In this document: positions 22,056-63,007 of the stretch, piece after piece | Layout of the letters: every line of letters starts with the position of its first letter | How positions within the stretch are numbered: the stretch's first letter is position 1 | Assembly (NCBI GenBank): GCA_965205505.1 | Contig: CBDBHB010000007.1 | Coordinates: forward strand, 416,001-480,000 | Length of the DNA: 64,000 nt | Direction: 5' to 3' | Source: Acidobacteriota bacterium | Lineage (GTDB): Bacteria > Acidobacteriota > UBA890 > WLXD01 | Notes under the pieces: model-generated | The model's database searches: none | Told to the model about the DNA's origin: nothing | What the model saw: the letters and a program-made list of their open reading frames with translations, nothing else | Program-made: the position numbers and the translations under genes

Positions 22056-22252
22056 TATAGAGCGACAGCCGCAACGTAGAGCAGAGCGCAAGTACCGCCC
22101 GCCGCGGCGGCCAGCTCGTGGCGTACCGATGAGACTCCGGTCGCCAAGACCACGGCCTTGGACTGGACTTGTGCCGGCAAACGAGCGTCACTGTGGGTGC
22201 CTTCGGCCGACGGTTCCGGACCGAACATATGTGCACGAAAACCCAACCCGGC

Positions 22253-22722: not shown

Positions 22723-22726
<4 letters not shown>
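22253..22726 (+). CDS. DUF2924-domain protein
   Basis: LRDEWWRLY..LSRDLLIRGIAYKLQENAHGGL..PGARLVRQWRG..YRSLSSIARRITGAHWSGPRFFG. Confidence 0.9.
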
Positions 22727-24462
<1,736 letters not shown>

Positions 24463-26946: not shown

Positions 26947-27216
26947 TCAGCTCTGTTCGTCCTGATAGAAGGCTTCCTCTGCGGTGATTTCGTCCTGATA
27001 GAACACTTCCTCTGCGGTGACGTCCGAGGACCGGTCCTTGTCTGGCGGATCGGCTGCGGGAGTCGTGGTGGTGCTGCGGGCGCTCCGAGACACCGCGAAC
27101 AGAAGCGCAATGACCAACAGCAAGAAGAACGCGACCAACAGCGGAGATACCATCGTGTTTATCCTCCTAGGGGGGCGATCTTGGGCGAGGGTAGCACCGT
27201 CCATGGTGCTTTCCAT
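26947..27216 (-). CDS. Small single-TM hypothetical protein with 11-aa tandem repeat
   Basis: One hydrophobic helix; TAEEVFYQDEI/TAEEAFYQDEQ (33-bp unit, 26956-27020). Confidence 0.45.
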   Translation of the reverse strand: MESTMDGATLAQDRPPRRINTMVSPLLVAFFLLLVIALLFAVSRSARSTTTTPAADPPDKDRSSDVTAEEVFYQDEITAEEAFYQDEQS

Positions 27217-27219
27217 CGG

Positions 27220-27414
27220 CTAGAGGTACCGCGCCACGGCCCCGCGTTCGGCGCTTGCACCGGCTGAGTAGTGAGCGACCATCCGGGCGGTCTTCCAGGC
27301 ACCGGCGAGCATGACCTCGGTAGTGGATGCTCCGCGGCCCGTCAGTTCCGATGCGAGCCCGACGCGCCCGGAGTGGGCGGTAAGTCGTGCCTCGATGCCG
27401 GCGGCTGCTGCTGC
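27220..27414 (-). pseudogene. Cre-like tyrosine recombinase C-terminal fragment
   Basis: LTAHSGRVGLASEL..EVMLAGAWKTARMVAHYS..GAVARYL. Confidence 0.8.
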
Positions 27415-27947
27415 GCTGATCGTCCCCGGCGCCGGGGACGAGCCCCGGCCGGACCCGAGCCTGATGCGGCTGCTCGTGCGCGCCTTCGGGATCCGTGATC
27501 GACTGGACCGCAACCCCGATCTCACGATCCAAAGGATCGCCGAGGCCGAGGGTGTGGTGGCCTCCTACGCCACCCGACTGCTGCGGTTGAGCTTCCTGGC
27601 GCCGGACATCGTCGCGGCCATCCTCGAAGGCCGCCCGCCGCTGGAGTTAACCGCCAACAAGCTCATGCGCGACACGCGACTGCCTCTGGAATGGACCGCG
27701 CAGCGGCAGCGTCTAGGGTTTCCGACCGCTTAGTCTTTGAATGGGCACCGTCAACGGCCAAAAACCCGTACCACCGCAAGGGGCTCGAGAGACATTGGCA
27801 CCGCAAGCTGGCGCCGGAGCGCACCGTGGTGTCTCTGTTGGCTTCAGGGGCAGCATCGAGTGCCGCTAAAGTCCTGAGAATCAAAGGGATATAGGCGGCG
27901 GTCTTGATAACTCCCGCAGTAATCTCAATGGCTCAAGTGGTAGGCGG
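27415..27947 (+). repeat. Partial third copy of the serine recombinase 3' end and element right end
   Basis: Near-identical to 24143-24676. Confidence 0.93.
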
Positions 27948-27983
27948 TGCACCCAGTCTGGAGCGAACCTGTCTCTGCCCGAT

Positions 27984-28176
27984 TTCCCTGTTAAACAGGG
28001 AAAAACAGGGAATTTTATCGATTTAGCCCCAAATCGGCCCGATCGAGGTCTCTTAACCCACTGATATTATGGGGCTTAGGGACCGAATTCCCTACGCAAC
28101 GGAACAGGGAATTTTCTGGCGGCGAACAGGGAATTTCTGCGGCCGAACAGGGAAATCCGTGCGCCGGAACAGGGAA
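27984..28176 (+). repeat. AACAGGGAA iteron-like repeats
   Basis: Direct copies at 27994, 28004, 28103, 28125, 28146, 28168; inverted TTCCCTGTT at 27984. Confidence 0.85.
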
Positions 28177-28884
28177 ATACGATCGGGGGGCTCGGTGGTC
28201 GGTTGCCGTGCCTTCGGCCGACGCGAAGTTGACTGACGCCTCACTGGCTCACCGAGCTGCGGGAGCAGCTCGGGCGGTTGAAGCATGAGCGACCGAAGCG
28301 GCGTGCGATTCGGTGTCCACGTTTCCGCAGCGGGAGGCCTGAACCGGACCCCCGAGCGCGGTTGCGGGAGCGTTGAAGCGTGCGGCGCGCGATCCCGTCA
28401 CGCTCTGCTGCCTCAATGATCCGCCCTGCCGGGGCTGCGCCGCCGTGCTCGTGCAAGTATCCAGGTTGCAGTCGGACTCCCCCCGCTGAAACGCGTTCGG
28501 GTGCACGGCCGATCGAGTCCCCAAAGTGGGGCGCGAGCACCCTAAGATGGGGGGTTTCGTCGGCCGAAATCCCCCGCGCTGCAACGCGCGAGCCACCCGC
28601 GCCTCCTAAGATGGCTCATGCTGCCATCGCCGATCATGGACTTGTCGCCGACTTCGCCAAAGGTTCCGACCCCTTCGTCGGCCTGGTCGCCGCCGGCCAC
28701 TCAATAGCAGTGGCCTATGAGTCGCTGCACCCGGACGCAAGGCCCCGGGTCGGCGTTCACCTCCGCCTTCCCAGACGGACCCTCGTCGAGGGATCACCGG
28801 CCACTATCCCCTCGACCCCCACCCCCACGGGCCGGCCGGGTCCCCGGGGGTGAGAGATGTCCGGTTACAGTCGGACTCCCCCCG

Positions 28885-29446
28885 GCCTGAATCTGGATGA
28901 GTTCCAGAAATCACAGGCGGAGTCGAAACAGCATGATGCCGACAGCACAGTGAAGCTCCGTATCGCCGCAACCTGGATCTGGGCGCTAGCCCAGGTCCAG
29001 AACGATCCGGTGGGGGAGATTACATGGGAGGCTGTCAAGGTCTCAGGCACCGAGCCGCTGGCGGTACGGACTGCTAACAAGCTCCAGCAGCAGGAGCTGT
29101 TGATGCCTGCCATGGGTGGTGCGCGACTACGCATGGCGCTCGAGAGCGCCGGCCTGTGGGATGGCCGCAACCACGTCACCTTCGCGGAGCTCGCGGAGTG
29201 GTTTTCCCGCTATCTGTACCTGCCGCGCGTGCGGGACCGGGACACGCTGATCGAGGCCACAAGAGTGCCGGCCAGATTGCTGACGAGGTCATCAGCCATC
29301 TCGGTGCGTTGCCCGGGGCGAGAGTCAAGGTGGCCATGGAGATCCATGTCCAGATGCCGGAGGGTGCCGATGAGCACCTCGTGCGCACGGTCAAAGAAAA
29401 CGCCTCAACACTGAAGTTCGACCACGTGGCATTCGAGGACGAGTAG
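28885..29446 (+). pseudogene. DUF499 AAA-ATPase C-terminal remnant (internally deleted)
   Basis: LNLDEFQKSQ..LAEWFSRYLYLPRVRD; terminal QIADEVISHL..VRTVKENASTLKF..FEDE. Confidence 0.7.
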
Positions 29447-29700
29447 TCCGGCTGCAGCTTTTGCAGTGCCCACGGGGTCCTCGCTGGTGGCGTAATCGCA
29501 TTGAGTCGCTTTAGGGATCCGTCGAAGTAGGACCGTTTTGTCTGCGCCAGTGACCTGCCCACCCGGCGGCCCAAACAACACTGAGTTCGGCGGTATCGGC
29601 GCCCGCCTCCCACGGGGGATTCTCCGAAAAGAGCGAACAGCTTTACCGTCGGGTGCAGGGGCCTGTTGGGCGGCGGGATTGGTCCGCCACGGATCCATGT

Positions 29701-30114
29701 TCATCTTGGCGATTCCTCGCACCCTCCCGTCGCAGAAGAGCCCGGTTTCGTGAACACGCGGACAAGCTGAGCCGCCTTGAGACCCTGACCCATCGGATAC
29801 TCGGTCCACGCGAGTGTCCCTGCCGCCGTATGAGCCGCGAGTAGTTGCTTGAGTAGCTTGCCGAGGACTATGCGCGGGATCTCGGCACGTCGGCCCGCAT
29901 ACCACTCGAACGGATCTCGTGCTCCCTTCGTCGCGTTGCAGCTTGAGCAGGCCATTACGAGGTTGTCGATTGTGTCGGGTCCTCCCTTGTCGCGCGGGAT
30001 GATGTGCTCCCACTGCAGGGAATCACTCTCGGTCCCGCAGTACGCGCAGCCACAAGAAGTGTCCTCGAGATCCTGGAAGCGGCGCTTGAACGCGGCGTCG
30101 AACAGCTCGCCCAC
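29701..30114 (-). CDS. HNH endonuclease (possibly 5'-truncated)
   Basis: CAYCG..LQWEHIIPRDKGGPDTIDNLVMACSSCNATKG. Confidence 0.8.
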   Translation of the reverse strand: MGELFDAAFKRRFQDLEDTSCGCAYCGTESDSLQWEHIIPRDKGGPDTIDNLVMACSSCNATKGARDPFEWYAGRRAEIPRIVLGKLLKQLLAAHTAAGTLAWTEYPMGQGLKAAQLVRVFTKPGSSATGGCEESPR

Positions 30115-39660: not shown

Positions 39661-40071
39661 ATGACATCAGGGTCCCTTTTCGACACGCCCTCCGAACGCG
39701 TCCTGCGCGCCCTCCCCGCGCCCGTAACCTCAATTGTCGAGGGATTCCTCGCCGAAGACCTGATCCCAGCCAGAGATCTTCGGGCCCGGATTCCCGCCTA
39801 CATCCATGAACTCGAGCAAGCCAAGAGTGCCCATGAGTTCCTCGACATCCATCTAGCCAAGAAACTGGCCGATCAGTGCCTCCAGCTTCTTGACGGCATC
39901 GACATCGATACATCCGCGGAATCGCGTCGGTTGATCCAGGCCGCAATCCAGTACTTCCTCTTCGACGAGGATGCCGACAGCGACAAGCGCTCGCTGATCG
40001 GTTTCGACGACGACGACCTCGTCGTCGAGCTTATCGCTCGAGAGATCGGCCGGGAGGACGTCCTTGGCTAG
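39661..40071 (+). CDS. Small acidic YkvA/DUF1232-like protein
   Basis: AAIQYFL..D.D..LIGFDDD; overlaps the helicase start. Confidence 0.5.
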   Translation: MTSGSLFDTPSERVLRALPAPVTSIVEGFLAEDLIPARDLRARIPAYIHELEQAKSAHEFLDIHLAKKLADQCLQLLDGIDIDTSAESRRLIQAAIQYFLFDEDADSDKRSLIGFDDDDLVVELIAREIGREDVLG

Positions 40072-42949
40072 GACGGCTTCCAGCGAACCACTCGCCCCTG
40101 GCGCCCGCGTCGAGATCCGCGACGAAGAGTGGATGGTGAGAACCACGAAGCACGCGCTTCCGGGAGGTCGTGCTGTCCACGCTACAGGCATGTCGGAGCT
40201 GGTCCGCGGCAAGGACGCCATTTTCCTTTCGGACCTCGACGAAATCAAAGTCCTACGACCCGAGGAGACATCACTCGTCCACGACGATTCGCCCCGCTAC
40301 CGCAAGTCCCGCCTGTACCTGGAAGCCCTCCTCCGCCGCACACCGCCGACCGACACGGACGCCACGATCTACATCGGCCACCGCGCCGCGATCAACCGCA
40401 CCGACTATCAACTCCAGCCTGCCGCCAAAGCTCTTCGCCAGCCGCGCCCTCGGATCCTCATGGCCGATGGCGTCGGCCTAGGAAAAACGATCGAGGTCGG
40501 CATCCTGCTGTCGGAGCTGATTAAGCGCGGCAGAGGCGAACGGATCCTCGTCGTTGCACTCAAGTCCGTGCTCACGCAGCTGCAGGAGGAGTTCTGGGCG
40601 CGCTTCACGATCCCGCTAGTGCGACTCGACTCGGTCGGAATTCAGCGGGTGCAGTCGGTGATCCCTTCCAACATGAATCCCTTCTACTTCTACGACCGCG
40701 TGATCATTTCGGTCGACACGCTCAAGCGCGACCAGAAGTACCGCCGCTATCTCGAGGAATGTCACTGGGACGCAATCGTTATCGACGAGTGCCAGCACGT
40801 CGCCGTGCGGGCGAAAGTAGGCGGCCTGCAGGAGTCGCAGCGTGCACGCCTTGCCCGCCTGCTCTCGCGTACCAGCGACGCGCTCATCATGACCTCGGCA
40901 ACCCCGCACGATGGCCGCCCGCAGAGCTTCGCCAGCCTCATGCGGCTGCTCGAGCCTACGGCCGTCGCCGATGATGAGAACTACACGAGCGAAGAGGTCG
41001 AAGACCTTTTCTTGCGACGCTTCAAGAAGGACATTGCGCACGAGGTCCGCGATGCCTTCAAGGAACGCGAGACGGCACTCGAGAAGCTGGATGCCTCCGC
41101 CCGCGAGAACGACGCGCTCGAGTGCCTTTCAAAGATCGAGTTCAGGACCATCGCGCGGAAGCTCGGCAGCGTGAAGGGCGGCAGAGGCATCCTATTTCGG
41201 ACGCTGCTCTTGAAGGCCTTCCTGTCGTCCCCGGCGGCCTGCTCCTCGACCATCGAAAAGCGCCTCAATCACAAGGCCCTCGAGGTAGACCATCCCGACA
41301 CCGCCCACGATCGCCGGGTCCTCGGCGAGCTCAAGCAACTAGTCGACGCCATCACGCCCGAGGAATTCCAGAAATACGTTGCTCTCCGCAGGAAGCTCGC
41401 TGACCTCGGAGTCGGCAAACGCAACAACGACGAGCGGGTCGTTGTGTTTTCCGAGCGCATCGACACCATCAAGTACCTGGCCGAACGCCTGAAGAAAGAC
41501 CTCAAGCTCAGAGCCGACCAAGTCGAGGTGTTCCATGGCACCCTCGACGACGTTCGCCAGCAGGGGCTGGTCAAGAGCTTCGGCACCGAATCGAGCCCGA
41601 TCCGCCTGCTCATCTGTTCGGACGTTGCCTCCGAAGGCATCAATTTGCATTTCTACTGCCACCGCATGGTGCACTTCGACTTGCCGTGGTCGCTGATCAC
41701 GCTCGAACAGCGCAACGGACGCATCGACCGCTACGGTCAAACCAACAAGCCGCTCATCGACTACCTCCTCACCATTCCCGCTGACCCCAAGCTCAAGGGC
41801 GACCTCCGCGTACTCGAACGTCTCATCGAAAAGGAGGAGCACGCCCATAAGAACCTCGGCGATGTCGCGTGGCTGCTGGCCCTGCATGAAGCCGAAGCCG
41901 AGGAAGATCACATCGCGCGTGGAATCGAAACCGGCGAGCCCGCCGAAGAAGTCATCCCTGATGATCCCGAGCACACCGATTTCATGGCGATGCTGTTTGG
42001 CCAGGACGTGCCGAAGGAAGCAACCCCCGATGTGCGCGAGCAACCTCTGAGCCTCTTTCTCGATGACCTCACCTATGCCCGTGAGGCCTTTGGCGAGATC
42101 CTTGCCGACGACAGCGACGGCATCGAGTGGCACGACCACCTGGACGGATTCACGCTCAGCCCACCAGACGACCTCGCGCTTCGCTACAAGTACATGCCAC
42201 GCGAACTGCAGACGAAGTCGGGTGAGCTCAAGCTCACGACCAGCGCTGCCTACGTCATGCAGTCGTACGACGAGTCGCGCCAAGACGAGTCCCGCTGGCC
42301 TGAATGGCAGCTCTTCTGGGAACAGCATCCGGTAGCCGAGTGGCTCAATGACCGCGTACTCGGAAGCTTCGAGCGCCACGAAGCTCCCATTCTCCGGGTA
42401 GACAAGGGCCTGGAAGCAGGCCAGCGCGTCGTCGTGTTCCAAGGTGTTATTTCGAATCACCGAAGCCAGCCAGCCGTCATCGAGTGGTTCGGTGTGCGCT
42501 TCGATTCCGGTCATTCCGTGGACATCGCGTCGCTCACCGATCTCATCAACGAGACCGGCCTGCAGGGCGACATTGCGAACCCCGGTACGGGCGTTGCCGA
42601 CGAGCTCAGCGAGGAACTCGCCCATCTCCTTAAGCCCGCCGTTGGGCATGCCGAACGGCACATGGAGGAGCTGCGCGCACACCGCGCCGGGGAGCGTGCC
42701 GAACCGCTTCGTGAAGGCATGCGCAAGCTAAAGCGTTGGTACGACAAATCCCTCGAAGATCTCCAAAAGTGGGAGAGCGCAAGATTGGCTCGGGGCATGC
42801 GAAAAGACGAGCGGGAGCGCTTCGCACGCCGTAAGACGTACATCGAAAAGACCTATGAAGAGCGCCAGCTCTTTGTAGACGAGGCCATGAAGACGGTGAG
42901 AGAACCCTACCTTCGCGTCGCCGCCGTTCTCATCCCACTGGAGCGCTAG
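40064..42949 (+). CDS. SNF2-family helicase, DISARM DrmD-like
   Basis: PGARVEIRDEEW, MADGVGLGKTIE, DECQH, SATPHDG, SEGINL, EQRNGRIDRYGQ. Confidence 0.88.
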   Translation: MARTASSEPLAPGARVEIRDEEWMVRTTKHALPGGRAVHATGMSELVRGKDAIFLSDLDEIKVLRPEETSLVHDDSPRYRKSRLYLEALLRRTPPTDTDATIYIGHRAAINRTDYQLQPAAKALRQPRPRILMADGVGLGKTIEVGILLSELIKRGRGERILVVALKSVLTQLQEEFWARFTIPLVRLDSVGIQRVQSVIPSNMNPFYFYDRVIISVDTLKRDQKYRRYLEECHWDAIVIDECQHVAVRAKVGGLQESQRARLARLLSRTSDALIMTSATPHDGRPQSFASLMRLLEPTAVADDENYTSEEVEDLFLRRFKKDIAHEVRDAFKERETALEKLDASARENDALECLSKIEFRTIARKLGSVKGGRGILFRTLLLKAFLSSPAACSSTIEKRLNHKALEVDHPDTAHDRRVLGELKQLVDAITPEEFQKYVALRRKLADLGVGKRNNDERVVVFSERIDTIKYLAERLKKDLKLRADQVEVFHGTLDDVRQQGLVKSFGTESSPIRLLICSDVASEGINLHFYCHRMVHFDLPWSLITLEQRNGRIDRYGQTNKPLIDYLLTIPADPKLKGDLRVLERLIEKEEHAHKNLGDVAWLLALHEAEAEEDHIARGIETGEPAEEVIPDDPEHTDFMAMLFGQDVPKEATPDVREQPLSLFLDDLTYAREAFGEILADDSDGIEWHDHLDGFTLSPPDDLALRYKYMPRELQTKSGELKLTTSAAYVMQSYDESRQDESRWPEWQLFWEQHPVAEWLNDRVLGSFERHEAPILRVDKGLEAGQRVVVFQGVISNHRSQPAVIEWFGVRFDSGHSVDIASLTDLINETGLQGDIANPGTGVADELSEELAHLLKPAVGHAERHMEELRAHRAGERAEPLREGMRKLKRWYDKSLEDLQKWESARLARGMRKDERERFARRKTYIEKTYEERQLFVDEAMKTVREPYLRVAAVLIPLER

Positions 42950-42951
42950 CC

Positions 42952-45900
42952 ATGGCCCTCGACCTCGGCGGCATCCAAAACGTGGAGTTCTACTCCGGCC
43001 ACTACCTTGACGCGGTGCTCGAGGGCGACCTCAAGGCCCTTTTCAGGCGCTGGGCCGACGACAAGAAAGAACTCGGCACCCGACAGCCGCAGGAGCGGCT
43101 CAACGCACTCGCCGAGCGCTACTTCAACTCCCGTGCTCAGGTCGAGGGCGAGCGCGACACCGTCGAACGGTGGCGCCTCTGCCGCGACTTCCACGTCCAC
43201 TTCATCCAAGCTCTCGGCTACGAGCACAAACCCAGCGCGGAGCTGCTCGACGACGACACCGTATGCCCGACGCTGCTGGCGCTACGGCGCGACGGCAACC
43301 CGTTCCTTTGGATCATCGACGCCCCCTCCGCACTTGAAGACGATGACGACCCGCTCGTCGCCAGGCCTCTCTCAGCACAACTTCCGACCGATGCAGAGGG
43401 CCGCAAACTTCCCAAGCTTTCCTGGCGCGAGTTCTTAGGGGAAGTCCTGTTCCGCATGGACTCCTGCCCGCGCTGGGTGCTGTTCCTGGCCGGCACCGAA
43501 GCCCTTCTCATGGAACGCAACAAGTGGCCGCAGGGTCGCTACCTGCGCTTCGACTTCGGCGACCTCTTCAGCCGCCGCGAAGCCAAAGCTCTGCGAGCCA
43601 CCGCAGGCCTGCTGCACCGCGACGTGCTCGCCCCCGACGCCGGCGTCTGCCTCCATGACACGCTCGACGAGAATTCCCACAAGCACGCCTTCGCGGTTTC
43701 CGGGGACCTCAAGCACGGCGTGCGCCGCTCCGTCGAGTTACTCGCCAACGAGGCGGTCTACTACCGCCGAGAAGTGCAGAAGCTCGGTGTCTTCAATGAA
43801 GAGGAGCTGGCTCGGAAGCTTACGTCCGAGTGCCTCACCTGGCTCTACCGCATGCTCTTCCTCTTCTACGTCGAGGCGCGCAGCGCCGAGCTCGACGTCG
43901 TTCCCATGGGCTCCAACGCCTACCGTGAGGGCTACAGCCTCGAGAAGCTCCGCGACCTCGAGCAGGTCCCGCTCACAACCCCCAAAGCGCAGAACGGCTA
44001 CTACATCCACGAGAGCCTGCGCACGCTGTTCCGCATCGTTAACCAGGGCTTTCCCGAAATCAGGGAGGACGGGCATCTCTACGAGGGCACGTCCCATAAC
44101 TCCATGGAGATCGACGCCCTGAACAGCCCGCTGTTCGACGATGACCGCCTCGAGATTCTCAAGGGCGTCAAGTTCCGCAACCACGTTCTCCAGGAAGCTC
44201 TTCAACTCCTCTCCCTCTCAGCCCAGAAGAGGAGGAAAGCCCGTGGCCGCATCTCCTACGCGCAGCTCGGCATCAACCAACTTGGCGCCGTCTACGAGGG
44301 CCTCCTCTCCTACACCGGTTTCTTCGCCACCGAACACCTCTACGAGGTGGCTGCCGAGAAAGACTGCAAGCGGCTCTCAGGCAAGCCCGCTGCCGAACGC
44401 GAGGCGCTCAAGACCTACTTCGTGCCGGCAAGACGCATCGGCGGCTACAACGAAGGCGAGATCGTCAAGGACGAGAACGACAAGAAGGTCGTGCACCTGA
44501 GAGGCGACTTCATCTTCCGCCTCGCCGGCCGCAATCGCGAGAAGTCGGCCAGCTACTACACGCCGGAAGTCCTGACCCGGTGCCTCGTCAAGTACGCTCT
44601 CAAGGAGTTGCTCTGGGAGGAAGGCGAAGAAGGTGCAAAGCCCACTCCCAAGAAAACCGCCGACGAGATCCTCGCCCTCACCATCTGCGAGCCTGCCATG
44701 GGCTCGAGTGCCTTCCTCATCGAGGCTGTGGACCAGCTGGCCGACGCCTATCTCGATGCCCGCCAGGAGGAGCTGGGCGAGACCATCCCGCCCGAGAACT
44801 ACCAGCGCGAGAAGCGCCGGGCGAAGGCTCGCCTCGCCACCAACAACTGCTACGGCGTGGACCTGAACCCCACCGCCGTCGAGCTCGCCAAGGTCTCCCT
44901 CTGGCTCGCCACCCTCCGCGAGGAGGGCAAGTGCCCCTGGTTCGGCCTGCGCCTCGCCACCGGCAACAGCCTGGTGGGCGCCCGCCGCGAGGTCTTCAGG
45001 ACGGATGATGTCACGCGTCCCAACAAGAGAGACAACCCCAATTGGCTCGGCCTCGTTCCCGAACCCGTACCGCTCCATCATGGTTCGAGCAGGGGAGCTC
45101 GCCCCGAAGCAGGTGGCAGGCCCGCCTCGACCGAAGGGGAAGATTGGGAGCACTGGACCGCGCCCCCGCGCCCGAAGGGCACCATCTACCATTTTCTGCT
45201 CCCGGCCGAGGGCATGGCTGCCTTCGACAGGGACGATGTCATCAAGCGGCTCGCGCCCGAGTCTGTGAAGCACATCAAGGAGTGGCGCAAGGAGTTTTGC
45301 AAGCCCTTCAACAAGAAGGACGCGGAACGCCTCGAGCAGATCTCCGATGCGGTGGATCGCCTCTTCGCCCAGGTGGTGCGCGAACGGATGCTGGCCACTC
45401 GGGAGACGAGCGACCGCATCCCCGTCTGGGGCGAGCCCCCGAGCGCCGAGCAGGCCCGCCTCCTTGTGCGCGATCAGGAAGAAGTGGCAGCGTCCCTGGA
45501 GCATCGCAGTTCAGCCTACCGCCGCCTCAAGGTCGCGATGGACGCCTGGTGTGCGCTCTGGTTCTGGCCCATCGAAGAAGCGAGCGTCCTGCCCGACCGC
45601 GCCACCTGGCTTGCCCAGCTGGAGGTGATTCTGAAGGGACAGATCACGCACGAACCAGTCTACGAGCAGGGCAATCTCTTCGCTGCTCTGGCACCCGCGG
45701 CGCAGGGCGAGGCCGCGGCGAGCCGGAATGTGGAAAGGGAAATCGCGTCGTTAGGTGGGGACGGGGCCGAACGACTGAGACGGCTGCGGGCGTTGTCGGA
45801 CGTCTTCCGCGACCGTCGGGCGAATTACCTCGAAGAGTGCGGGCTAGCGGACATGGACGCAGTGCTCGAAGGGGACACCAGCCTATGCACCACGCAGGTC

Positions 45901-46092
45901 ATTGCGGACCGACTCCGCTTCCACCATTGGCAATTGCGCTTCGCAGAGGCATTCGCGGAAGGGGGGGCTTTGACCTGACTCTTGGGAATCCGCCATGGGT
46001 CAAGATCGAGTTTGACGAGATTGGACTCGTATCGGATACCGATCCTCGCCTTGGCGTCCGCAAGGCCAGTGCGTCAGAGATTTCCGGGCGGA
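42952..46092 (+). pseudogene. Large Eco57I/DrmMI-like adenine methyltransferase; frameshift at G7 and truncated by IS
   Basis: QLGAVYEGLL, SYYTP, EPAMGSSAFL, YGVDLNP..ELAKVSLW, FHHW; GFD..GNPPW lies in a shifted frame after 45967. Confidence 0.88.
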
Positions 46093-52990: not shown

Positions 52991-53662
52991 TCAGGTCCGC
53001 GGATGCTTCCGGACCGCGAGTTCGGCGGTACGCAGGACCTGGGCGCATCGGCTTTGGGACCACAGCAGGACTCTCCCCGCAGAAACGCCCGCGAGGGCTG
53101 GACCGGGTTTCTGGTCGCACACATACCGCAACGGATCGAGGAAGCCTATTACGGCACCGACGTTCTTCCACCCGGCCATTGTGGCCCGTACGTGGTCGAG
53201 CGACTCGGGGTATTCAACGTCGCAGACGTGGATGGCTATCGACGGGATCAACCCAGGGAGAATTTCTTGGACCACCTGCTCGATACCACGCAGGGACGGA
53301 ATGGCGTCGCCGTAGTGACCAGGATCGACGTCGTTCGCCCAGAGATGCAATTTCGCCTGCCGCAAAGTCGCTAGCAAGCTCACGATTAGAGCCCCGTTCG
53401 CCCCGCAGTCGGGCCGATGCCTCAGACAGCGTCTGATGACATCGACGAAGTCGCCTCCTCCGCTGCTGTCAGCAATCTGCTGGAGCGCGCCCGACGAGAT
53501 CCCGACAGACTGCGGATGGGGGCGCCACTCCGAAAGAGCGGGCATCGCGAAAGCCGTTGCGAAACCGAGACTCTCGCCGGGCTCAATCCGATCCAGAAGC
53601 AGCGCAGCCGTCTCAGCTACAACCAGGTTTTCGAGAAGAGTACCGACGTTCTGAATCGGCAT
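52991..53662 (-). CDS. Hypothetical protein (possibly a fragment)
   Basis: 223-aa ORF; IGFLDP motif; no family recognised. Confidence 0.45.
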   Translation of the reverse strand: MPIQNVGTLLENLVVAETAALLLDRIEPGESLGFATAFAMPALSEWRPHPQSVGISSGALQQIADSSGGGDFVDVIRRCLRHRPDCGANGALIVSLLATLRQAKLHLWANDVDPGHYGDAIPSLRGIEQVVQEILPGLIPSIAIHVCDVEYPESLDHVRATMAGWKNVGAVIGFLDPLRYVCDQKPGPALAGVSAGRVLLWSQSRCAQVLRTAELAVRKHPRT

Positions 53663-53745: not shown

Positions 53746-54509
53746 TCACGCCAAGTATCCAGGCGTCCCATAAGTGAACCGCTCTCTCCATATGAGCTCC
53801 AGTACGTCGTTGGTGAAACGACGCGTGGCCACGTTACAGAAAGCGTCGACGATCGCAGAGCTGCCAGACCCGCGGCCCTCGATCACGTCCATCCAGAACG
53901 CGGGCTTGTAGCGGACGAGATTCCCGAGGATGTAAAGGCCGGCATAGAGGACAGCGGTTGAGGATACGATTCCGCATTCATGCCGTTCGACCAAGAAATA
54001 CCGGCTGTCGATCGCGTGCCGCGTGATCGACAGGTTCGGCGGCAGGTCAGGCCCAGGCTCCGAGCGAAGAAACGCCGTTTGTGAGCCATCGGCGGTTTCT
54101 TCAAAGCCGTCGGCAAGGGCAGGCAAGTGCTCGGCTATCTCCGCGTGCGGAAGTCCGCAGGCCGTGATGATCAGCAGGTGGCCCGCGTCCGTTGGCCGCG
54201 GCTCGTGGCGCAGCTTTATCATGGGTGGCTTCGCGCCATAGTGACGATAGTGCAACGGCATCAGGTCGGGTATTCGGCCGACCATTTCTTGAAATCGAAC
54301 AGCTACGTTCTCCTCAAGCGGGCCGTCGCCCACAACGGAGCAGAGGCCGGGGAACACTCCCGCCGCCTTGGTGACACCGAACTCGGCTTCGACTGACCAA
54401 TCTCCGGGAGACTGCACGTAGTCTGTCAGCCGTTCGCTGTTCGGTCGCGTGGCGAGCCCGTGGTATCTGATTTCGTGAAGTTCAGCGCCTTCCGACGAGG
54501 CGAGGATCG
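53746..54509 (-). pseudogene. YaaC-like protein, 5'-truncated
   Basis: HGL..GVF..; LYAGLYILGNLVRYKPAFWMDVI. Confidence 0.7.
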
Positions 54510-54654
54510 CGCGGGGCCGATGAGATGGCCGCCCTTCAGGAGCGGATCGCGGCGCTTGGGGCGATACAGCTGCCCACGCTGCGTGATGAATGGTGGCGTC
54601 TTTACCAGACACCCCCGCCCCGGCGGCTCGGCCGCGATCTGCTGATCCGGGGCA
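54510..54654 (+). repeat. Short fourth piece of the DUF2924 gene
   Basis: Near-identical to 22262-22406. Confidence 0.9.
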
Positions 54655-55010
54655 CGGTCACCGTCGCCGACCTGATGGACCGCTTCCTCGATGACTACCT
54701 CCAGAACAAGAAACGGCCGCCGAAGGCGTCGACCTTACGGAGCTACGACAGCCTGATCCGCTGCCATGTTGTGCCTACTCTGGGGAAGAAGCGCGTGGCC
54801 GAGATAGCCATGGCGGACCTGGAGCGAATGCACCGGCGAATGCGGCGACTCCGTACGTGGCGAACCGCACCCTGACCGTCCTACAGCACGCCTTCGACCT
54901 GGCCGAGGGCGCCAGCCCTGGCGCCTGCGCTGCCATTCGCGTCGCCTTCTGGACGGGCTGGCGGATCGGCGAGGTGCTCGCCCTCGAATCGGACAACCTC
55001 GATCTCGATT
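54655..55010 (+). pseudogene. Tyrosine integrase remnant (internally deleted)
   Basis: TVADLMDRFL..STLRSYDSLIRCHVVP.LG; ANRTL; TGWRIGEVLAL. Confidence 0.7.
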
Positions 55011-55102
55011 CGAGGCTCGAGGGGTCGCCGACGGGCATCGACGAGCGACGACGGACAACTCTAGGATTATCATTGGCTAGGAAGAGAACCGGAGCTGCAA
55101 CC

Positions 55103-57119
55103 ATGCCGGACACGATCGACGGCTACGAAATCCAAGGCTCACTTGGCTCAGGCGCTTTCGGGCGGACCTATCGGGTGACGAAGGGCGGCAACGTCTACGC
55201 GATGAAGGTGCTCAAGCCCGAGGCGATACGCACCGAAGTCGACCGCGAGCGTTTCCAGCGCGAGTGCCGGGCCCTGCAGAAGATCGAGAGCGAGTACGTC
55301 GTCGCGTACTATGACCATGGAGTCTTTGACGACGACGGCCGCGAAACCTACTACATCGTCATGAGCTTCGTCGAGGGCACCGACTTCGACCGGCTGCTGC
55401 GCCGCGAGAGCCCTCCCCGTCCCGAGGCGGAGATCCGCGCCGTGCTGGGACAGGTACTCGCTGGTCTGGCCGACATCCACGAGTGCAACATCGTCCACCG
55501 AGACCTCAAGCCGGCAAACATATTCGTCGCGAAGGACGGCGCGGTGAAGATCGGCGACTTCGGCCTCGTGAAGATGATCGACTACACGACGTTGACGATG
55601 ACGGGCGAGACCCTTGGCACGCCACTGTACATGTCGCCCGAGGAGATGCTCGACCGAGAGATCGACCACCGCAGTGATCTGTTCTCATTCGGCGTGCTGC
55701 TGTACCAGCTTCTGACTGGCCACTTCCCGTTTCCTGCGGGGAACATCATGCAGCTGATGCATGCTGTCACGCAGTATCCGCCGGAACGGCCGACGCTCCA
55801 CAACCCGGATTTGTCTAACCGCCTGGAGAACTTGGTACTGCGGCTTCTCGAGAAGGAGCCCTTCCTCCGGCCGTCCAACGCGGCGGAGGTGGCGGAGTTG
55901 CTGGAGCGTACGCCCTTCTACCGGGCGGATGAAGCTCCGGCACCGGAGGCCGAGGCGTGGAGCTTCGGCAAGCGGATGTGCTTCATCCGACTGCTGCACA
56001 ACGAGAAGAGCGTGACCGAACGGTTCCTGTCGGACCACACAATCGACGGGGTGGTCTTCCAGGCCAACTACATCCCACGGTACCGAGGGCAGCTGGAGGT
56101 GCTGCGTGACCACGGCGTGCCGTATCTCTTCGATCCGAGCACGAACCGCCTGACGTACTCGAAATTCAGCGAGACGAAGGGCCTGCGGGAGCTGCCGTAC
56201 GTGCTGGACAAGATGAGTAGGCTGACGCCGGCGAAGCTGCGCTCGATCGCCGACATCCGCAGGTATGTCAGGGAGGTGCTGAACTGGCAGATCCAGCATC
56301 GATGCAGGTACCTGGTCGCTCCGTTTCACTTCAGCAAGACGCTGACCTCGGAGTGGATGGAGATCGACCTGAAACTGATCTCGGAGGCTCGTGAGTACCT
56401 ATCGTCGAAGGGGCGCGAGGAGCGGCTGTTCGCGGCGGTCTGCACGAACCTCGAGGACCTTACGGACAAGGAGAACCGACGGCACTTGGTCAATCGGTAC
56501 TCGAAACATCCGGTAGACGGTTATCTGTTCTACATCGACCTCGTGCAGGAGCAGACGAGCGTGCCGGGTCAGCTGTACGGGTACCTGAACATGCTCGTGG
56601 ACTTCAGAGCGCTGGGAAGGCCCCTGATCGCCTGCCGGGTGGGCAACCTAGGCCTCGGCGTGGTGTCGCTCGGCATCGACGCCTTCACTACTGGAATCGC
56701 ATCGCTGAGCTTCTTTTCGGAGAAGACGCTGCTGGAAGATCGTCCGACCGGGTACACGATGCAGCTCAAGTACTACCTGCCGGAGTTGCTGTCGAACGTC
56801 CAGATCGGCGCCGCGATCGATGTGCTGAGCTCAGGTCAGTACGCGAGGCTCGTCTGTGGCTGTCCATACTGCGGTGGCCGTGTGGACGAGGTGACCTTGA
56901 GCAGGGCCGCCAAGCCGCATTTCCTCTACCGCCGGCGTCCAGGAGATGGAGGCCATCAACGCCACGAACGACGGCGCGCGGCTCGGCGATTTCCTAGACA
57001 AGACAGAGCAGGCGCTGAAGTTGACGACCGAGATCCGGCACAAGCTGGGTGTCGCCATCCCCAACCAGCATTTCAAGACCTGGCTCGAGGTCTTTCCCGA
57101 AGTGGCCAAGCGGCTCTAG
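55103..57119 (+). CDS. Ser/Thr protein kinase fused to a TGT/beta-protein-like TIM-barrel domain with Zn site; +1 frameshift near 56937
   Basis: LGSGAFG, AMK, HRDLKPAN, DFG, GTPLYMSPE, DLFSFG; C-domain YLFDP, YLVAP, GIDAFTTGI, CGCPYC..H; shifted frame ends at TAG 57117-57119. Confidence 0.8.
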
Positions 57120-57784
57120 CAGCGTAAGCCAGTGGCGTGGATCTGCTGCCAGATTCGCTCGTTGGTCATTAGGAACATCTCTTCGCTGCGCGGCTTGCGG
57201 CGGCGCGGGTGGAACACGATCTCGGCCGCGTCGTGGGAGACGGTCATCAGTCCGACGTTGTGCTTGCGGAGGATCTCGTCGCGCACGCGAGCTCGATGCC
57301 GCGCGGCGATGGCCAAGTAAGTCTTGTGGGCGAAGTGCTGGTAGCGCTTGGCCTGGCACAGTCCCTCGAACCAGTTCTTCATCTTGGCCTCAACGGCCCA
57401 GATCTCCTCGGCCACGGGTCTGTACTCGCCGAGGAGCTGGAAGGTGTCGTCGTCGGTCCTCTCGACGAAGTTCTCGGCGAGTAAGAAGCGCAGCACGTCG
57501 TAGCGGAGGCGCCTGGCCGAGATACCGGTGTGTTCGAGAAGCCGGTCGAAGGTCGCCCCCTCGAACTTCCGTAGCGCGTGGACGACCTGGACCTCGGCCC
57601 GGCGGGGCAGGGTCGTGGTCTGACGCTGGCGGAGCCGCTGGCGGACTCCATCGTCGCAAGGCCGGGCGGCAACGACATCGGCCACGCCGTAGCCGACGCC
57701 AAGCTCCTCGACCACGATGCTGTCTGCCCACAGCCCAGCTAGACAGGCCTTGATCGGCTCGATCATCTCGCTTTCGTAGCGCAC
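57116..57784 (-). CDS. wHTH + PD-(D/E)xK nuclease-like protein (sce7726/MmcB-like)
   Basis: AGGA RBS + GTG; EELGVGYGVADVV; central HTH; WAVEAKMKNW..QAKRYQHFAHKTYLAI; VGLM. Confidence 0.75.
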   Translation of the reverse strand: MRYESEMIEPIKACLAGLWADSIVVEELGVGYGVADVVAARPCDDGVRQRLRQRQTTTLPRRAEVQVVHALRKFEGATFDRLLEHTGISARRLRYDVLRFLLAENFVERTDDDTFQLLGEYRPVAEEIWAVEAKMKNWFEGLCQAKRYQHFAHKTYLAIAARHRARVRDEILRKHNVGLMTVSHDAAEIVFHPRRRKPRSEEMFLMTNERIWQQIHATGLRC

Positions 57785-58508
57785 AAGCGTGTTCCTGTCG
57801 TCGCTCGAGAGCTGATTCTCGTTGCCAGAGTATATGCCGATGAAGCCGGCGGCGCGAAACGGCACCGCCCCTGGCAACGCACCGCCCGGGAAGATCCCCT
57901 GCGGTCTCCGGCCGCCTCTTGACCCGTCTTGGAGTGGCGCATCGGCCCTGACGTGCGCTCCATCAAGTACGCGGCGGTGGCGGACAACGGCGAGCGGCTG
58001 CAGGACGACGCGGTCCCTAGAAGCGAACTTCGGCGCCCGCGATGGGGCGCTGTTCGTGGCGCTATACGCGGAGCACGCAGGCAAGGTGTTGCGGGTGTTC
58101 TTCGTGGATGCCGGCGGCTCGCCGGGCTTGGCCCATGGGTGCGCGGCTCGCACCATGGCATCAAGCGGGCCGCCGAGCTGGCGGGACTGCCTGAGCGCAG
58201 AGGAGATATCCGGTGTTGTGCGATGCCGTTGTCGCTGAGCTCCGGCACCGGCCTGAGGTGCACGGCTTTCCTACTCAGTAGGCCCTCGCGCCTCGTTGCC
58301 GGTCGGCGGCGTAGATGATGTGGTCCGAGACTGATGCCGGGATCAGATGCGCGGTCCAGTTCAACAGCGTCAGCGCGCGACTCAAGCGGGCCGGTATGGA
58401 GCGGAGCAATGCTTCGTTCGTGGCACGGGCTGCAGAGGGCGACGACAAGTCGGTACGGCTCGGCCAGAGGATCTGGATAGATCCCCAGCAGGGGCCTACG
58501 ATATCTCC

Positions 58509-60073: not shown

Positions 60074-60797
60074 GATTGATCGATAAATCGAATGGCCATC
60101 CTAACGTACAGTCGGTGCCAGGAGGCGCTGATCCGACAAGTACTCGAAGAGTTCCGTCGATGCGAGGATGCCAGTGGCGCGGCGTGGGGGCTCGTGGGTC
60201 GCAGGAGGGGTCTTTACGGTCGTCGGTGGCCGTCGTTCTCGTCCGCGAGCTTGTTGATTTGCTTGGCATTTCGCCCGATCGCCCTCGCGAGCTCTCCGAT
60301 CTTCGCCCGCAGCTCCTTGATCTCCGCCTCCCGAGAGACCTCATCCCGCTCTTGCTTGCCCGAGAAGCCGGGCCAGTACCTTCTGCCGAGCCTTCTTCTT
60401 CCAGTTGGCGATCAGGTTCGGATGCACATCGTAGCGGGCTGCCAGCTCCGCCATCGTCGCTTCCTCCCGAAGCGCCTCCAAAGCGACCTTCGCCTTCAGC
60501 TCAGCAGGATAACTTCGTCTCTTCCGTGGCATTCCAGACTCCTTCTCCTTGGTCTGGATTCCACCTTAGCAAGCTGTCCGAATTTCGGGGTCCACCTCTG
60601 TATAGAGCGACAGCCGCAACGTAGAGCAGAGCGCAAGTACCGCCCGCCGCGGCGGCCAGCTCGTGGCGTACCGATGAGACTCCGGTCGCCAAGACCACGG
60701 CCTTGGACTGGACTTGTGCCGGCAAACGAGCGTCACTGTGGGTGCCTTCGGCCGACGGTTCCGGACCGAACATATGTGCACGAAAACCCAACCCGGC

Positions 60798-61271
60798 ATG
60801 GCCCCACGCGGGGCCGATGAGATGGCCGCCCTTCAGGAGCGGATCGCGGCGCTTGGGGCGATACAGCTGCCCACGCTGCGTGATGAATGGTGGCGTCTTT
60901 ACCAGACACTCCCGCCCCGGCGGCTCAGCCGCGATCTGCTGATCCGGGGCATCGCCTACAAGCTGCAGGAAAACGCCCACGGTGGCTTGAGCAAGGCCAC
61001 CCAGCGCCGCCTTCGGACACTGGCCAAGACCTTCGCCCAGACCGGCCGTGTGGCCCCCGGGAGGGGTCCGCGGCTGCGCCCTGGCGCGCGGCTGGTGCGG
61101 CAGTGGCGCGGTCGAACCTACGTGGTCACCGTCACCGAAACTGGCTTCGAGTACACCGGTAAGCTGTATCGCTCCTTGAGCAGTATCGCCCGGCGTATCA
61201 CCGGCGCCCATTGGTCCGGCCCCCGCTTCTTCGGCGTTCAGGGAGCGCCGCGCGCCAAGGGCTCGCCTTGA
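60798..61271 (+). CDS. DUF2924-domain protein (copy 2)
   Basis: Same protein as 22253-22726. Confidence 0.9.
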   Translation: MAPRGADEMAALQERIAALGAIQLPTLRDEWWRLYQTLPPRRLSRDLLIRGIAYKLQENAHGGLSKATQRRLRTLAKTFAQTGRVAPGRGPRLRPGARLVRQWRGRTYVVTVTETGFEYTGKLYRSLSSIARRITGAHWSGPRFFGVQGAPRAKGSP

Positions 61272-63007
61272 ACGAGGCGACTGCTCCTGCCTGCCGCAAC
61301 GGCAACTGGCGCGTGCGCTGCGGTATCTACACCCGCAAGTCCCACGAGCATGGGCTGGATCAAGCCTTCAACTCCCTGCAGGCGCAGCGTGAAGCTTGTG
61401 AGGCCTATATCGCGAGCCAGAAGCACGAAGGCTGGATGGCTCTACCCAATCACTATGACGATGGCGGTGTATCCGGCGCCACGATGAATCGGCCAGGGTT
61501 GCAGCGTCTGCTGGCCGATATTCAAGACGGGCGGATCGACGTCATCGTGGTGTACAAGGTGGACCGGCTGACCCGGGCGTTATCGGACTTCGCCCACATC
61601 GTGGAGGTGTTGGACCGGTACGAGGTGTCGTTCGTGTCGGTAACCCAGCAGTTCAACACCACCAGCTCGATGGGCCGGCTGACGCTCAACGTGCTGCTGT
61701 CATTCGCGCAGTTCGAGCGCGAGGTCACCGGTGAGCGCATTCGCGACAAGATCGCCGCCTCCAAGAAAAGAGGTCTGTGGATGGGAGGCAACCCGCCCCT
61801 GGGCTACGACGTCCAGGACCGGAAGCTGATTGTCAACGAGCCGGAGGCCGGAACCGTCCGCTATATCTTCCGCCTGTACCGTCAGCTCCGATCGGTGCGG
61901 GAGCTACGTGAGCGGCTCGGGGCCGAGGGCGTCACTAGCAAGCGCCGGGTGCTGCGCGACGGCCGCGTCACCGGTGGCAAGCCCATCAACCGGGGGGCGC
62001 TCTACTACCTGCTGCGCAACCGCATCTACCGGGGACAGATCGTCCACAAGGACAAGGCCTATCCCGGCGAACATGAAGCCATCATCGATCGGGAGCTGTG
62101 GGATGCGGTGCAGGCGACCCTGACCGACAACACCCGGGGCACCCGCCGCCGGGGCTCCCGGCGGCCCAGCCTGCTTACGGGCCTGCTGGTGGACGAGCAG
62201 GGCGAAGGCCTCACGCCCACCCATGCGGTTAAGAAGAACCGGCGCTACCGCTATTACGTCTCCCGCCACCTGATCATCGAGGGCAAGCAAGCCGACCGCA
62301 AGGGGTGGCGCATCCCAGCGGCGGATCTGGAGGGTCTCGTCGTGGCCCGTCTGCGGGAATGGCTCGGTGATCCGGCAGCGGTGAGCGCTGTGGTGCAAGG
62401 CGACCGCCCCGATGCAGCAGCCCTAGCAGCTTTGATCGCCAGCGCCAAGAAGCTCGCCGAACGGTGGCCGAGCCTGAAACAGGATCAAGCCAGGGCGTAT
62501 CTCAAGAGCCTCCTGCGGCGCGTCATCATCCGGTCCGGCAGCATCCAGATCCAGATCGCCGCGGACCGGGTCACCGAGGCGGTGTGCTCGGAGCCCGATG
62601 GCGGGCCGGTGCTGCCATCAACCCTCACCCACGACACCATCACCCTGGAGATCCCCGCCGTGCTCCAGCGCGCCGGCATGGCGGTGAGGCTGATCGTCCC
62701 CGGCGCCGGGGACGAGCCCCGGCCGGACCCGAGCCTGATGCGGCTGCTCGTGCGCGCCTTCGGGATCCGTGATCGACTGGACCGCAACCCCGATCTCACG
62801 ATCCAAAGGATCGCCGAGGCCGAGGGTGTGGTGGCCTCCTACGCCACCCGACTGCTGCGGTTGAGCTTCCTGGCGCCGGACATCGTCGCGGCCATCCTCG
62901 AAGGCCGCCCGCCGCTGGAGTTAACCGCCAACAAGCTCATGCGCGACACGCGACTGCCTCTGGAATGGACCGCGCAGCGGCAGCGTCTAGGGTTTCCGAC
63001 CGCTTAG
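61268..63007 (+). CDS. Large serine recombinase (copy 2)
   Basis: Differs from copy 1 at three visible residues (S/G, R/H, V/L). Confidence 0.93.
   Translation: MNEATAPACRNGNWRVRCGIYTRKSHEHGLDQAFNSLQAQREACEAYIASQKHEGWMALPNHYDDGGVSGATMNRPGLQRLLADIQDGRIDVIVVYKVDRLTRALSDFAHIVEVLDRYEVSFVSVTQQFNTTSSMGRLTLNVLLSFAQFEREVTGERIRDKIAASKKRGLWMGGNPPLGYDVQDRKLIVNEPEAGTVRYIFRLYRQLRSVRELRERLGAEGVTSKRRVLRDGRVTGGKPINRGALYYLLRNRIYRGQIVHKDKAYPGEHEAIIDRELWDAVQATLTDNTRGTRRRGSRRPSLLTGLLVDEQGEGLTPTHAVKKNRRYRYYVSRHLIIEGKQADRKGWRIPAADLEGLVVARLREWLGDPAAVSAVVQGDRPDAAALAALIASAKKLAERWPSLKQDQARAYLKSLLRRVIIRSGSIQIQIAADRVTEAVCSEPDGGPVLPSTLTHDTITLEIPAVLQRAGMAVRLIVPGAGDEPRPDPSLMRLLVRAFGIRDRLDRNPDLTIQRIAEAEGVVASYATRLLRLSFLAPDIVAAILEGRPPLELTANKLMRDTRLPLEWTAQRQRLGFPTA

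Follow-up and report, generated by a model that had tools for sequence, protein, structure and literature searches.

Enzymes with the fold of tRNA-guanine transglycosylases (TGT) have recently been found in immunity, where DpdA inserts bases into DNA, Cap10 conjugates bases to protein and TIM-B barrels control effectors. Here we describe a gene pair in which a predicted barrel of the TGT type is fused to a Hanks-type Ser/Thr kinase and adjoins the gene of a predicted PD-(D/E)xK nuclease. It is located at positions 55103-57784 of a stretch of 64,000 nt from an Acidobacteriota bacterium (GenBank assembly GCA_965205505.1, contig CBDBHB010000007.1, positions 416,001 to 480,000 of the forward strand), which as a whole is called the window in the following. 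The pair is probably a module for bacterial defence or addiction that has not been described before. That it represents a self-contained, horizontally moving two-gene conflict module directed against phages or other mobile elements has, in our estimate, a probability of roughly one half.

The closest described systems combine TGT-related barrels with nucleases or toxins. A preprint of October 2026 (10.64898/2026.10.19.760177) unified the TIM-B barrels and related them to the deazaguanine transglycosylases; according to its text these barrels regulate effectors and pair with convergent overlapping nuclease genes, and no kinase is listed in this text among the effectors. In P4, gop and beta lie on one strand, cII is convergent and int adjoins. 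The gop-beta-cII system defends against lambda and P1, with Gop being toxic when beta is absent, as described in the text of PMC9122126. PD-lambda-2C, which the text of PMC9519451 calls 'related to a P4 phage antitoxin', is required there for defence and not for toxin neutralisation. Cap10 is described as a TGT-family enzyme in cyclic oligonucleotide-based antiphage signalling systems (CBASS). Both DpdA and Cap10 exemplify the recruitment of the TGT fold into immunity.

The principal features of the locus in the window are the following.

55103-57119, plus strand: gene of the kinase-TGT-like fusion, about 671 codons after frame correction
55124-55882, plus strand: Hanks-type Ser/Thr kinase domain, residues 8-260 (Pfam PF00069)
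55955-57116, plus strand: predicted TGT-superfamily (beta/alpha)8 barrel with zinc subdomain and C-terminal helical extension, residues about 285-671 (structure model and structural matches)
56855-56920, plus strand: CxCx2C-x15-H motif, C585, C587, C590 and H606 (conservation)
56934, plus strand: 1-nt insertion causing a frameshift, whereby the last 62 or so residues are replaced (homologue alignments and contigs of public runs)
57116-57119, no strand: CTAG palindrome in which, after frame correction, the two convergent genes have their stop codons (sequence)
57116-57784, minus strand: intact partner gene for a predicted PD-(D/E)xK nuclease of 222 aa with an inserted winged helix-turn-helix (model and structural matches)

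An earlier note on this DNA, made from the letters alone, had read a complete Hanks kinase from its motifs, and this was confirmed. Pfam Pkinase (PF00069) covers residues 8-260 of the fusion protein with an E-value of 5e-54 (183.9 bits, cut-off 31.7), and the translation carries the full catalytic signature including the G-loop (GSGAFG), HRDLKPAN, DFG (152-154) and SPE. All other motifs named in that note were found as well, namely LFDP, LVAP, GIDAFTTGI and CGCPYC-x15-H in the fusion protein and GVADVV, AVEAK and QAKRY..FA in the partner. Residue conservation was derived from 57 proteins of the same kinase-barrel architecture, down to 27% identity; K35, E54, H132-R133-D134, N139, D152, G154, T165, P179-E180, D192 and R256 are invariant among these. 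Homologues of the fusion form 76 clusters, mostly of 665-683 aa, with kinase Pfam families recorded for 71, and an N-terminal Pkinase domain was present in all 10 distant fused proteins checked (barrel identity 22-30%). The start codons of both genes are consistent with the homologues.

Several defence-linked Hanks kinases share with the fusion the idea of a sensor domain combined with a Ser/Thr kinase. Among the PADLOC models of this group, mad6 of the methylation-associated defence system (MADS; E 2e-71), PD-T4-6 (E 4e-68) and also MkoA matched the kinase. The matches covered residues 3-277 only and all ended by about residue 284; judged by sequence scores they are no stronger than the match to housekeeping PknB-type kinases, whose model NF033483 reached 219 bits (cut-off 450). 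The likeness to PD-T4-6, MADS, MkoA and to PglW of bacteriophage exclusion (BREX) is thus confined to the kinase, and none of these models reaches the barrel. Stk2 is another defence-linked Hanks kinase. A contig scan on kinase-motif patterns additionally gave 80 generic kinases (L001-L080) that were left out of the analysis. The approximately 390 C-terminal residues of the fusion matched no family in Pfam, NCBIfam or PADLOC.

For this C-terminal part a structure was predicted with AlphaFold2. The model was built on the intact homologue L103, with 82% identity to the window, and not on the frameshifted protein of the window, and used a family alignment of 114 members headed by this homologue. 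It reached a pLDDT (predicted local distance difference test) of 96 and a pTM (predicted template modelling score) of 0.93, and shows eight units of strand and helix with a helical extension behind them. In a Foldseek search of the PDB the best 50 matches were all TGT (E around 1e-7, TM-score 0.45-0.57, identity 12-14%). VIA-align, which is independent of Foldseek, gave a Z-score of 22.6 to the archaeal ArcTGT 1iq8 (301 residues, root mean square deviation 3.2), 20.4 to the bacterial TGT 3unt, 18.8 to QTRT2 6fv5, 16.8 to Cap10 of type IV CBASS (9ntn_B) and 16.6 to DpdA 7ui4, whereas unrelated barrels did not exceed 13.6, which is 3 to 9 Z units below the TGT-family chains. The fold is shared with TGT, DpdA and Cap10 over about 270-306 residues at 8-15% identity. 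According to the model, the domain therefore belongs to the TGT superfamily by fold and retains a zinc motif, in agreement with the TGT-like zinc barrel that had been proposed from the letters.

At the sequence level the relationship is distant. The fusion protein lies outside Pfam TGT (PF01702, no match at E-values up to 1), and the only PF01702 match in the genome of the window is an ordinary tgt gene on contig C8. The sole sequence match of the barrel family profile in the PDB was the zinc region of ArcTGT 1iq8 (E 0.011). A search with the C-terminal domain of the window against 1.84 billion representatives returned 324 proteins at E-values of at most 1e-3, of which 68 were at or below 1e-10, and many of the 324 are stand-alone proteins of 390-430 residues. 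Ten such stand-alone relatives matched no Pfam or NCBIfam family, and the ESM Atlas offered only unnamed clusters for the barrel as well as for the partner.

The residues C585, C587, C590 and H606 of the zinc motif are each kept in at least 90% of the 57 fused proteins. Among the 114 family members C301, C306 and H322 (numbering of the C-terminal domain, equivalent to C585, C590 and H606) are at least 90% conserved, and the middle C303 (C587) is not among the residues reaching this level. In TGTs the zinc-binding Cys and His are separated by about 23-26 residues. Since the spacing is 15 here, the identity of the ligand His is uncertain. Other positions are conserved in the fused proteins: D344-P345 and W418 are invariant, with D344 at the end of strand 3, and T347, R349, P365-Y366, Q396, P407, E428, D472, R512 and Y558 are kept in at least 90%.

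A local hhalign comparison of the barrel family with 25 TGTs of the phylum was collinear over 334 columns (P 0.0027) at a probability of only 11%; with a single TGT sequence the probability was 3.8%. In the weak alignment to the 25 TGTs the three Cys of the barrel fall on the TGT Cys triplet, GID(G/A)F on GVDLF, DGYLFYID..E on GYGIGGLAVGE and LVAPFHF on VLDEC. D526 of the GID motif aligns with the nucleophile Asp and E483 with E235, a Pro (P123 in the numbering of the C-terminal domain) takes the place of the guanine-binding Asp D156, and the invariant D344 lies 5-7 positions off D102. The nucleophile assignment is based on D102, D156 and D280 (Z. mobilis numbering), which we take to be the catalytic or substrate Asp residues of TGT. 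Thus, the barrel differs from TGT in its position outside the Pfam family, in the Pro that this weak alignment puts at the guanine-binding Asp, and in its fusion to a kinase.

The 222-aa ORF facing the fusion gene had been suspected to be a PD-(D/E)xK nuclease with a winged helix-turn-helix, and the structure prediction supports this. It starts with GTG, and start and length agree with 68 homologue clusters (about 219 residues). The model, based on 42 sequences, reached a pLDDT of 95 and has a restriction-endonuclease-like core. The structural matches were 3dnx (Z 12.6 over 131 aligned residues; Foldseek E 2.3e-5), PaqCI (10.7), the XisH-like 2okf (9.6), NucS 2vld (9.5), AF1548 1y88 (9.3) and Can2 (8.6). 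The winged helix-turn-helix (residues about 56-123), matched by many regulators of the MarR/ArsR type, sits between the strand with D36 and the strand with E132-x-K134. E27, D36, E132, K134, Q144, R147 and Y148 are invariant in the 42 sequences. The sole family signal was a sub-threshold match to NCBIfam sce7726 (NF033832), with 16.4 bits (cut-off 70; E 0.0065) and over residues 144-201 only. Presumably 3dnx is a member of the MmcB-like repair family PF06319, which the Atlas gives only as a lead of 0.75. Longer, fused forms of the partner were not found, which is weak evidence.

Linkage of the two genes was examined in 39 loci, 38 from a metagenome scan with barrel-specific patterns and one from G201, the other genome of the phylum with the fusion. 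A partner homologue directly adjoins the kinase-barrel gene in 37 of them, and in the two exceptions (L112 and L113) the contig ends within the kinase-barrel gene. As in the window, the partner is convergent in 12 loci (clade A), all at least 75% identical to the barrel of the window; in 25 loci (clade B, 40-49% identity) it is co-directional and lies directly downstream. These counts are not independent events because they include near-duplicates (e.g. L130-L132, L134-L136, L116/L117 and L119/L120). Of the 39 loci 34 contain the kinase part; in four it is cut off by the contig start, and L109 lacks it. Despite 3.7 kb of upstream DNA this last locus has no kinase part, and it keeps the partner gene at least in part.

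The pair is also carried by the mobilizable plasmid p6_CACC119 of Priestia megaterium (NZ_CP140272, positions 27082-29751; WP_322552809.1 and WP_322552810.1). Here the fusion is a 677-residue 'serine/threonine-protein kinase' with a barrel 25% identical to that of the window, and the 223-residue convergent gene, overlapping the fusion gene by 36 nt, is a homologue of the partner (hhalign probability 99.7%, E 8.6e-27) with E27, D36, E132 and K134 retained. Thus, the proposal of a two-gene module was borne out, and its convergence holds for the clade of the window and for the Priestia plasmid, but not for the 25 more distant loci. Beyond two closely related contigs, no third gene recurred in the neighbourhoods of 17 non-redundant loci (123 ORFs), and the flanks of 18 stand-alone barrel relatives, searched to about 1.2-1.5 kb, contained no partner homologue. 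These data support that the two genes form a conserved module, linked in both orientations, whose linkage survives inversion.

The kinase gene (FRAMESHIFTED in the window's strain) contains one surplus base, as shown by a DNA alignment with 5 homologues. The uncorrected ORF runs from the ATG at 55103 to 57127 and ends in the shifted frame, resulting in a translation of 674 residues. Past HFLYRR this translation becomes Arg-rich and diverges from all 14 aligned homologues, and the conserved tail VQEMEAIN...FKTWLEVFPEVAKRL with its stop is found in another frame of the window DNA. The frame-corrected gene stops at TAG 57117-57119. Since both stops then fall into CTAG 57116-57119, the convergent overlap is 2 nt and not 12. 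Public sequencing runs were compared over window positions 54400-58300; no RNA run was among those listed as containing the DNA. The base at 56934 is missing in contigs of the runs X4, X5 and X6, which come from three other studies and show 4-5 further differences to the window in about 3.3-3.6 kb, i.e. represent near-identical strains. It is present, at a depth of 10, in the contig of run X1, probably the source sample. Therefore the insertion is a real, strain-specific mutation of a circulating intact allele.

In the homologue model, the replaced residues make up the greater part of three long C-terminal helices behind the zinc motif. Because the insertion removes these helices, the kinase-barrel copy of the window is probably impaired. 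The locus had been called near-intact, which holds for the locus as a whole; its partner gene is intact and its frameshifted kinase gene is not. In another locus, L115, the barrel of the fusion gene is interrupted by an in-frame TAA (L115:2825), and the nuclease gene is intact. The run contigs also differ upstream of the partner gene.

57810-57831, no strand: 22-nt unit, 26-47 nt upstream of the start codon of the partner (run contigs)

This unit is single in the window, X1 and X6 and is a tandem double in the contigs of X4 and X5.

The resemblance to P4 gop-beta-cII and TIM-B systems is one of organisation: a TGT-like barrel and a convergent nuclease of restriction fold overlapping its 3'-end, beside an integrase. 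The pairing of beta-protein-like barrels with sce7726-like nucleases, on which the earlier note had drawn, is real. In three of the four genomes with a sce7726 match this gene is convergent to, and overlaps, a PF14350 (Beta_protein) gene, with ORF overlaps of about 50-100 nt (L148, L149 and L150 in G103, G298 and G100, respectively); in G279 (L147) it is co-directional with a gene of 323 aa, which has no PF14350 or PADLOC match. The sce7726 proteins match the PADLOC cll model (P4 cII; E 1e-17 to 2e-24), and the PF14350 proteins match the PADLOC models beta and PD-Lambda-2_C. The motif order E..G..D...ExK...Q...Y is shared by the partner and the sce7726/cII nucleases.

Despite this similar organisation, membership of the pair in the TIM-B/cII class was not supported by profile tests and hhalign probabilities. 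PF14350 matched neither the fusion protein nor 10 stand-alone relatives nor anything else in the genome of the window; the PADLOC models beta and PD-Lambda-2_C did not match the barrel, nor cll the partner of the window and four relatives. The hhalign probabilities were 1.0% for the barrel against TIM-B, 0.2% for the partner against P4 cII and 1.1% for the partner against sce7726, the latter on the E..G..D segment. In contrast to TIM-B, the barrel of the window keeps CxCx2C, which is absent from four aligned TIM-B sequences, and it differs from both TIM-B and gop-beta-cII by its fusion to a Hanks kinase, the lack of a Gop-like gene and a nuclease with an inserted winged helix. PD-lambda-2 of E. 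coli (HigB-like protein, Xre-peptidase and TIM-B component) likewise has a TGT-related barrel as a component; unlike the pair described here, it comprises three genes with an RNase-type toxin and neither kinase nor nuclease partner, and its models do not match the barrel.

Two further systems were considered and set aside: CapK/CapS, in the text of PMC13373217 an anti-sigma-type kinase with a STAS substrate, is unrelated, and the BREX/BRC systems in the text of PMC12839542 contain TGT homologues with GNAT and no kinase. A kinase-TGT-barrel architecture was not found described in the literature searched; the supplementary tables of the TIM-B preprint and of defence surveys could still list it. 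The earlier note had recognised no named system in the locus. This holds insofar as PADLOC gave no match beyond the generic kinase, but the TIM-B class, as presented in the text of the October 2026 preprint (10.64898/2026.10.19.760177), is analogous. Since TIM-B systems with a convergent nuclease are described there, the idea is less isolated than had been assumed. The pair is a variation on a kind recognised recently, the TGT-related barrel accompanied by a nuclease, and not a categorically new system.

This analogy raises the alternative of an addiction module of the TIM-B type, in which the barrel would constitutively silence a toxic effector (kinase, nuclease or both) via a small product or a covalent mark; the main role would be to stabilise the carrier mobile element, with defence as a by-product. 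Such a role is proposed for TIM-B barrels in the text of the same preprint, which also notes the convergent overlapping nuclease genes, and P4 beta neutralises Gop according to the text of PMC9122126. The convergent overlapping layout recurs in the window, the 12 loci of clade A and the Priestia plasmid, and plasmid and integrase-linked contexts fit as well. The 25 co-directional loci, however, indicate that antisense control is not general, and the hhalign values for TIM-B and cII given above show no detectable sequence homology. Moreover, the window and L115 are two natural copies with a broken barrel and intact kinase and nuclease frames, which is unexpected for a barrel that is an essential antidote, unless the whole fusion protein is lost. 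We consider this explanation on the whole unlikely. The same two copies provide a mild argument for a barrel that acts as a sensor rather than as an indispensable antitoxin.

The structural match to the DNA base insertase DpdA, which was among the five best of the barrel, and the resemblance of the partner to restriction-type nucleases such as PaqCI, together with its predicted DNA-binding winged helix, would be compatible with modification-restriction as in Dpd. The barrel would insert a modified base as a self mark, the nuclease would cut unmarked DNA and the kinase would regulate both. This appears distinctly improbable, as neither a DpdB-like ATPase nor a base-synthesis gene nor any other third gene recurs beside the pair, and the local hhalign puts P123 at the guanine-binding Asp of TGT. 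In addition, the strain with the broken barrel keeps its nuclease and would be self-toxic if self-marking were lost, and we know of no modification-restriction system that needs a Hanks kinase.

Named homologues occur in Eiseniibacteriota, Thermoanaerobaculia, TA06, Uhrbacteria and other Patescibacteria, and Bacillota. Within the phylum, 401 genomes yielded two with the fused form, that of the window and G201; the 4 other genomes of the window's genus lack it. A distant stand-alone barrel relative only (about 391-405 aa, 19-25% identity; L085-L101) was found in 17 genomes, nearly all in the window's order, of which 25 other genomes were searched. The stand-alone barrel may represent a branch of the family that was inherited vertically. 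A paralogue in the genome of the window itself (L082, G000 contig C5:25533-26243) lacks CxCx2C and lies beside an acyl-CoA synthetase-like gene. An integrase remnant directly upstream of the kinase gene, reported from the letters, could be verified.

54525-54872, plus strand: remnant ORF with a DUF2924 5'-fragment and an integrase N-terminal SAM-like domain (Pfam PF14659, E 3.8e-7; 145-nt repeat D3)

Downstream of the pair lies a unit of DUF2924 and a large serine recombinase. Taken together, context and spread show the pattern of a small mobile accessory module.

A role outside conflict would be that of a signalling pair in DNA-damage or nucleic-acid repair, with the barrel recognising a damaged or modified base, the kinase signalling and the MmcB-like nuclease processing the lesion. 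The best structural match of the partner, 3dnx, and the Priestia plasmid pair, which has a 'damage repair protein' and a YolD-like gene as neighbours, speak for it. The rare fused form in the phylum and its lack in the other genomes of the genus speak against it, and varied neighbourhoods and mobile-element flanks are not marks of a repair pathway, so that among the explanations weighed here we regard this one as the least probable. On the Priestia plasmid the annotated damage repair protein is of the Y-family; a zinc-ribbon protein also flanks the pair, and BRCT-domain and DEAD/DEAH helicase genes are located farther on.

Additional observations concern the surroundings of the pair in the window. 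A unit of at least 2.7 kb, comprising an IS3-like orfA remnant, DUF2924 and the large serine recombinase, occurs twice in direct orientation (21743-24443 and 60288-62988, 38,545 nt apart); its repeat blocks D1-D3 are 100% identical. A third copy of the DUF2924 5'-end, of 145 nt, is located at 54510-54654 and is joined to the integrase remnant upstream of the kinase gene. The approximately 36 kb between the two copies of the recombinase unit may be one composite mobile island. Positions 39998-45978 encode an SNF2 helicase (PADLOC DrmD E 1e-97, DrmA E 1e-69) and, behind it, a type IIG restriction-methyltransferase (E 1e-149; DrmMI E 2e-58). This locus, which is DISARM-like (defence island system associated with restriction-modification) or a helicase-coupled type IIG system, lies about 9 kb upstream of the pair. 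A YaaC-like protein (53746-54612, minus strand; PF14175, E 3.5e-15) and an unannotated neighbour of 223 aa (52991-53662, minus strand) had no PADLOC match and may be another small accessory pair.

A conflict module is favoured because three domains with conserved catalytic-type residues, the strict linkage, the sporadic spread with mobile elements and the precedents of TIM-B, Cap10 and DpdA coincide, and a defence role is plausible. The barrel would bind, or chemically act on, a ligand bearing a nucleobase, for which nucleic acids, free bases and conjugates of a base with a protein come into question, and as a sensor or regulator would set the activity of the fused kinase. Kinase and nuclease would form the output, with the winged helix aiming the nuclease at DNA. 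The kinase-barrel protein would probably bind the nuclease in a complex or have it as its substrate. What we infer from sequences, structure models and genomics is the ligand, the direction of control, phosphorylation of the nuclease by the kinase and the defence phenotype. A more specific version, in which the barrel is an active nucleobase-transfer enzyme whose reaction on nucleic acid, nuclease or kinase directly switches the Hanks kinase, is a tentative possibility that we rather doubt. If true, the pair would be an immune system with phospho-signalling coupled to base exchange, and TGT enzymes would have entered immunity independently for a third time, besides DpdA and Cap10, in the form of a zinc-retaining family widespread across bacterial phyla.

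Several observations weigh against the conflict module. D526 is invariant in 15 close sequences and falls below 90% in the 57 fused proteins; since its invariance is limited to the close clade, base exchange may not be the activity of the barrel. No Ser or Thr is invariant across the 42 partner sequences, hence a conserved phospho-acceptor is not evident in the partner. The control of the nuclease by the kinase, suggested in the earlier note, received weak support by a complex prediction using both alignments, which scored 0.42 compared to 0.00 for the best of three controls (contact agreement at least 72%, partner pLDDT at least 85). Of 80 solved complexes 58 attained the mark for this score, as did 2 of 110 mismatched pairs, and passing scores of at most 0.60 comprised only 7 of the 80 solved complexes plus both passing mismatches. 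The weakness of this score counts against the conflict module.

Further counter-evidence comes from the neighbourhoods. The expected linkage of the homologues to defence islands is not apparent from the neighbourhoods. The 123 neighbour ORFs of the 17 loci are heterogeneous and mostly housekeeping-like (ArgJ, RNB, semialdehyde dehydrogenase, MFS, FeoB). Matches to defence models at E-values of at most 1e-10 were limited to a type IV restriction enzyme, HEC-06, PDC-S45, a DnaG-like protein and another kinase, with 1-2 cases each, namely one for each of the first three and two DnaG-like primases; 2 integrases were also among the neighbours. With no background rate behind these counts, enrichment in defence islands is not demonstrated. 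Copies in phages were not detected by tblastn against 50,697 phage records, and a scan of viral contigs with the barrel patterns gave 52 pattern matches, none of which was confirmed.

To the TGT-fold enzymes that have recently been found in immunity, the pair adds a zinc-retaining barrel of the TGT type with a eukaryote-like kinase in the same chain and a nuclease linked to it, in a family spanning candidate phyla (Patescibacteria, TA06) to plasmids of Bacillota. If the pair defends, current annotation pipelines miss it; neither the barrel nor the nuclease is detected by the copies of Pfam, NCBIfam and PADLOC used in this analysis. The copy on p6_CACC119 in a cultured organism, Priestia megaterium, makes the module testable, and the frameshift allele of the window and the intact alleles of near-identical strains constitute a ready natural comparison. 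Through the fusion itself it can be studied directly how a kinase may be controlled by a base-handling domain.

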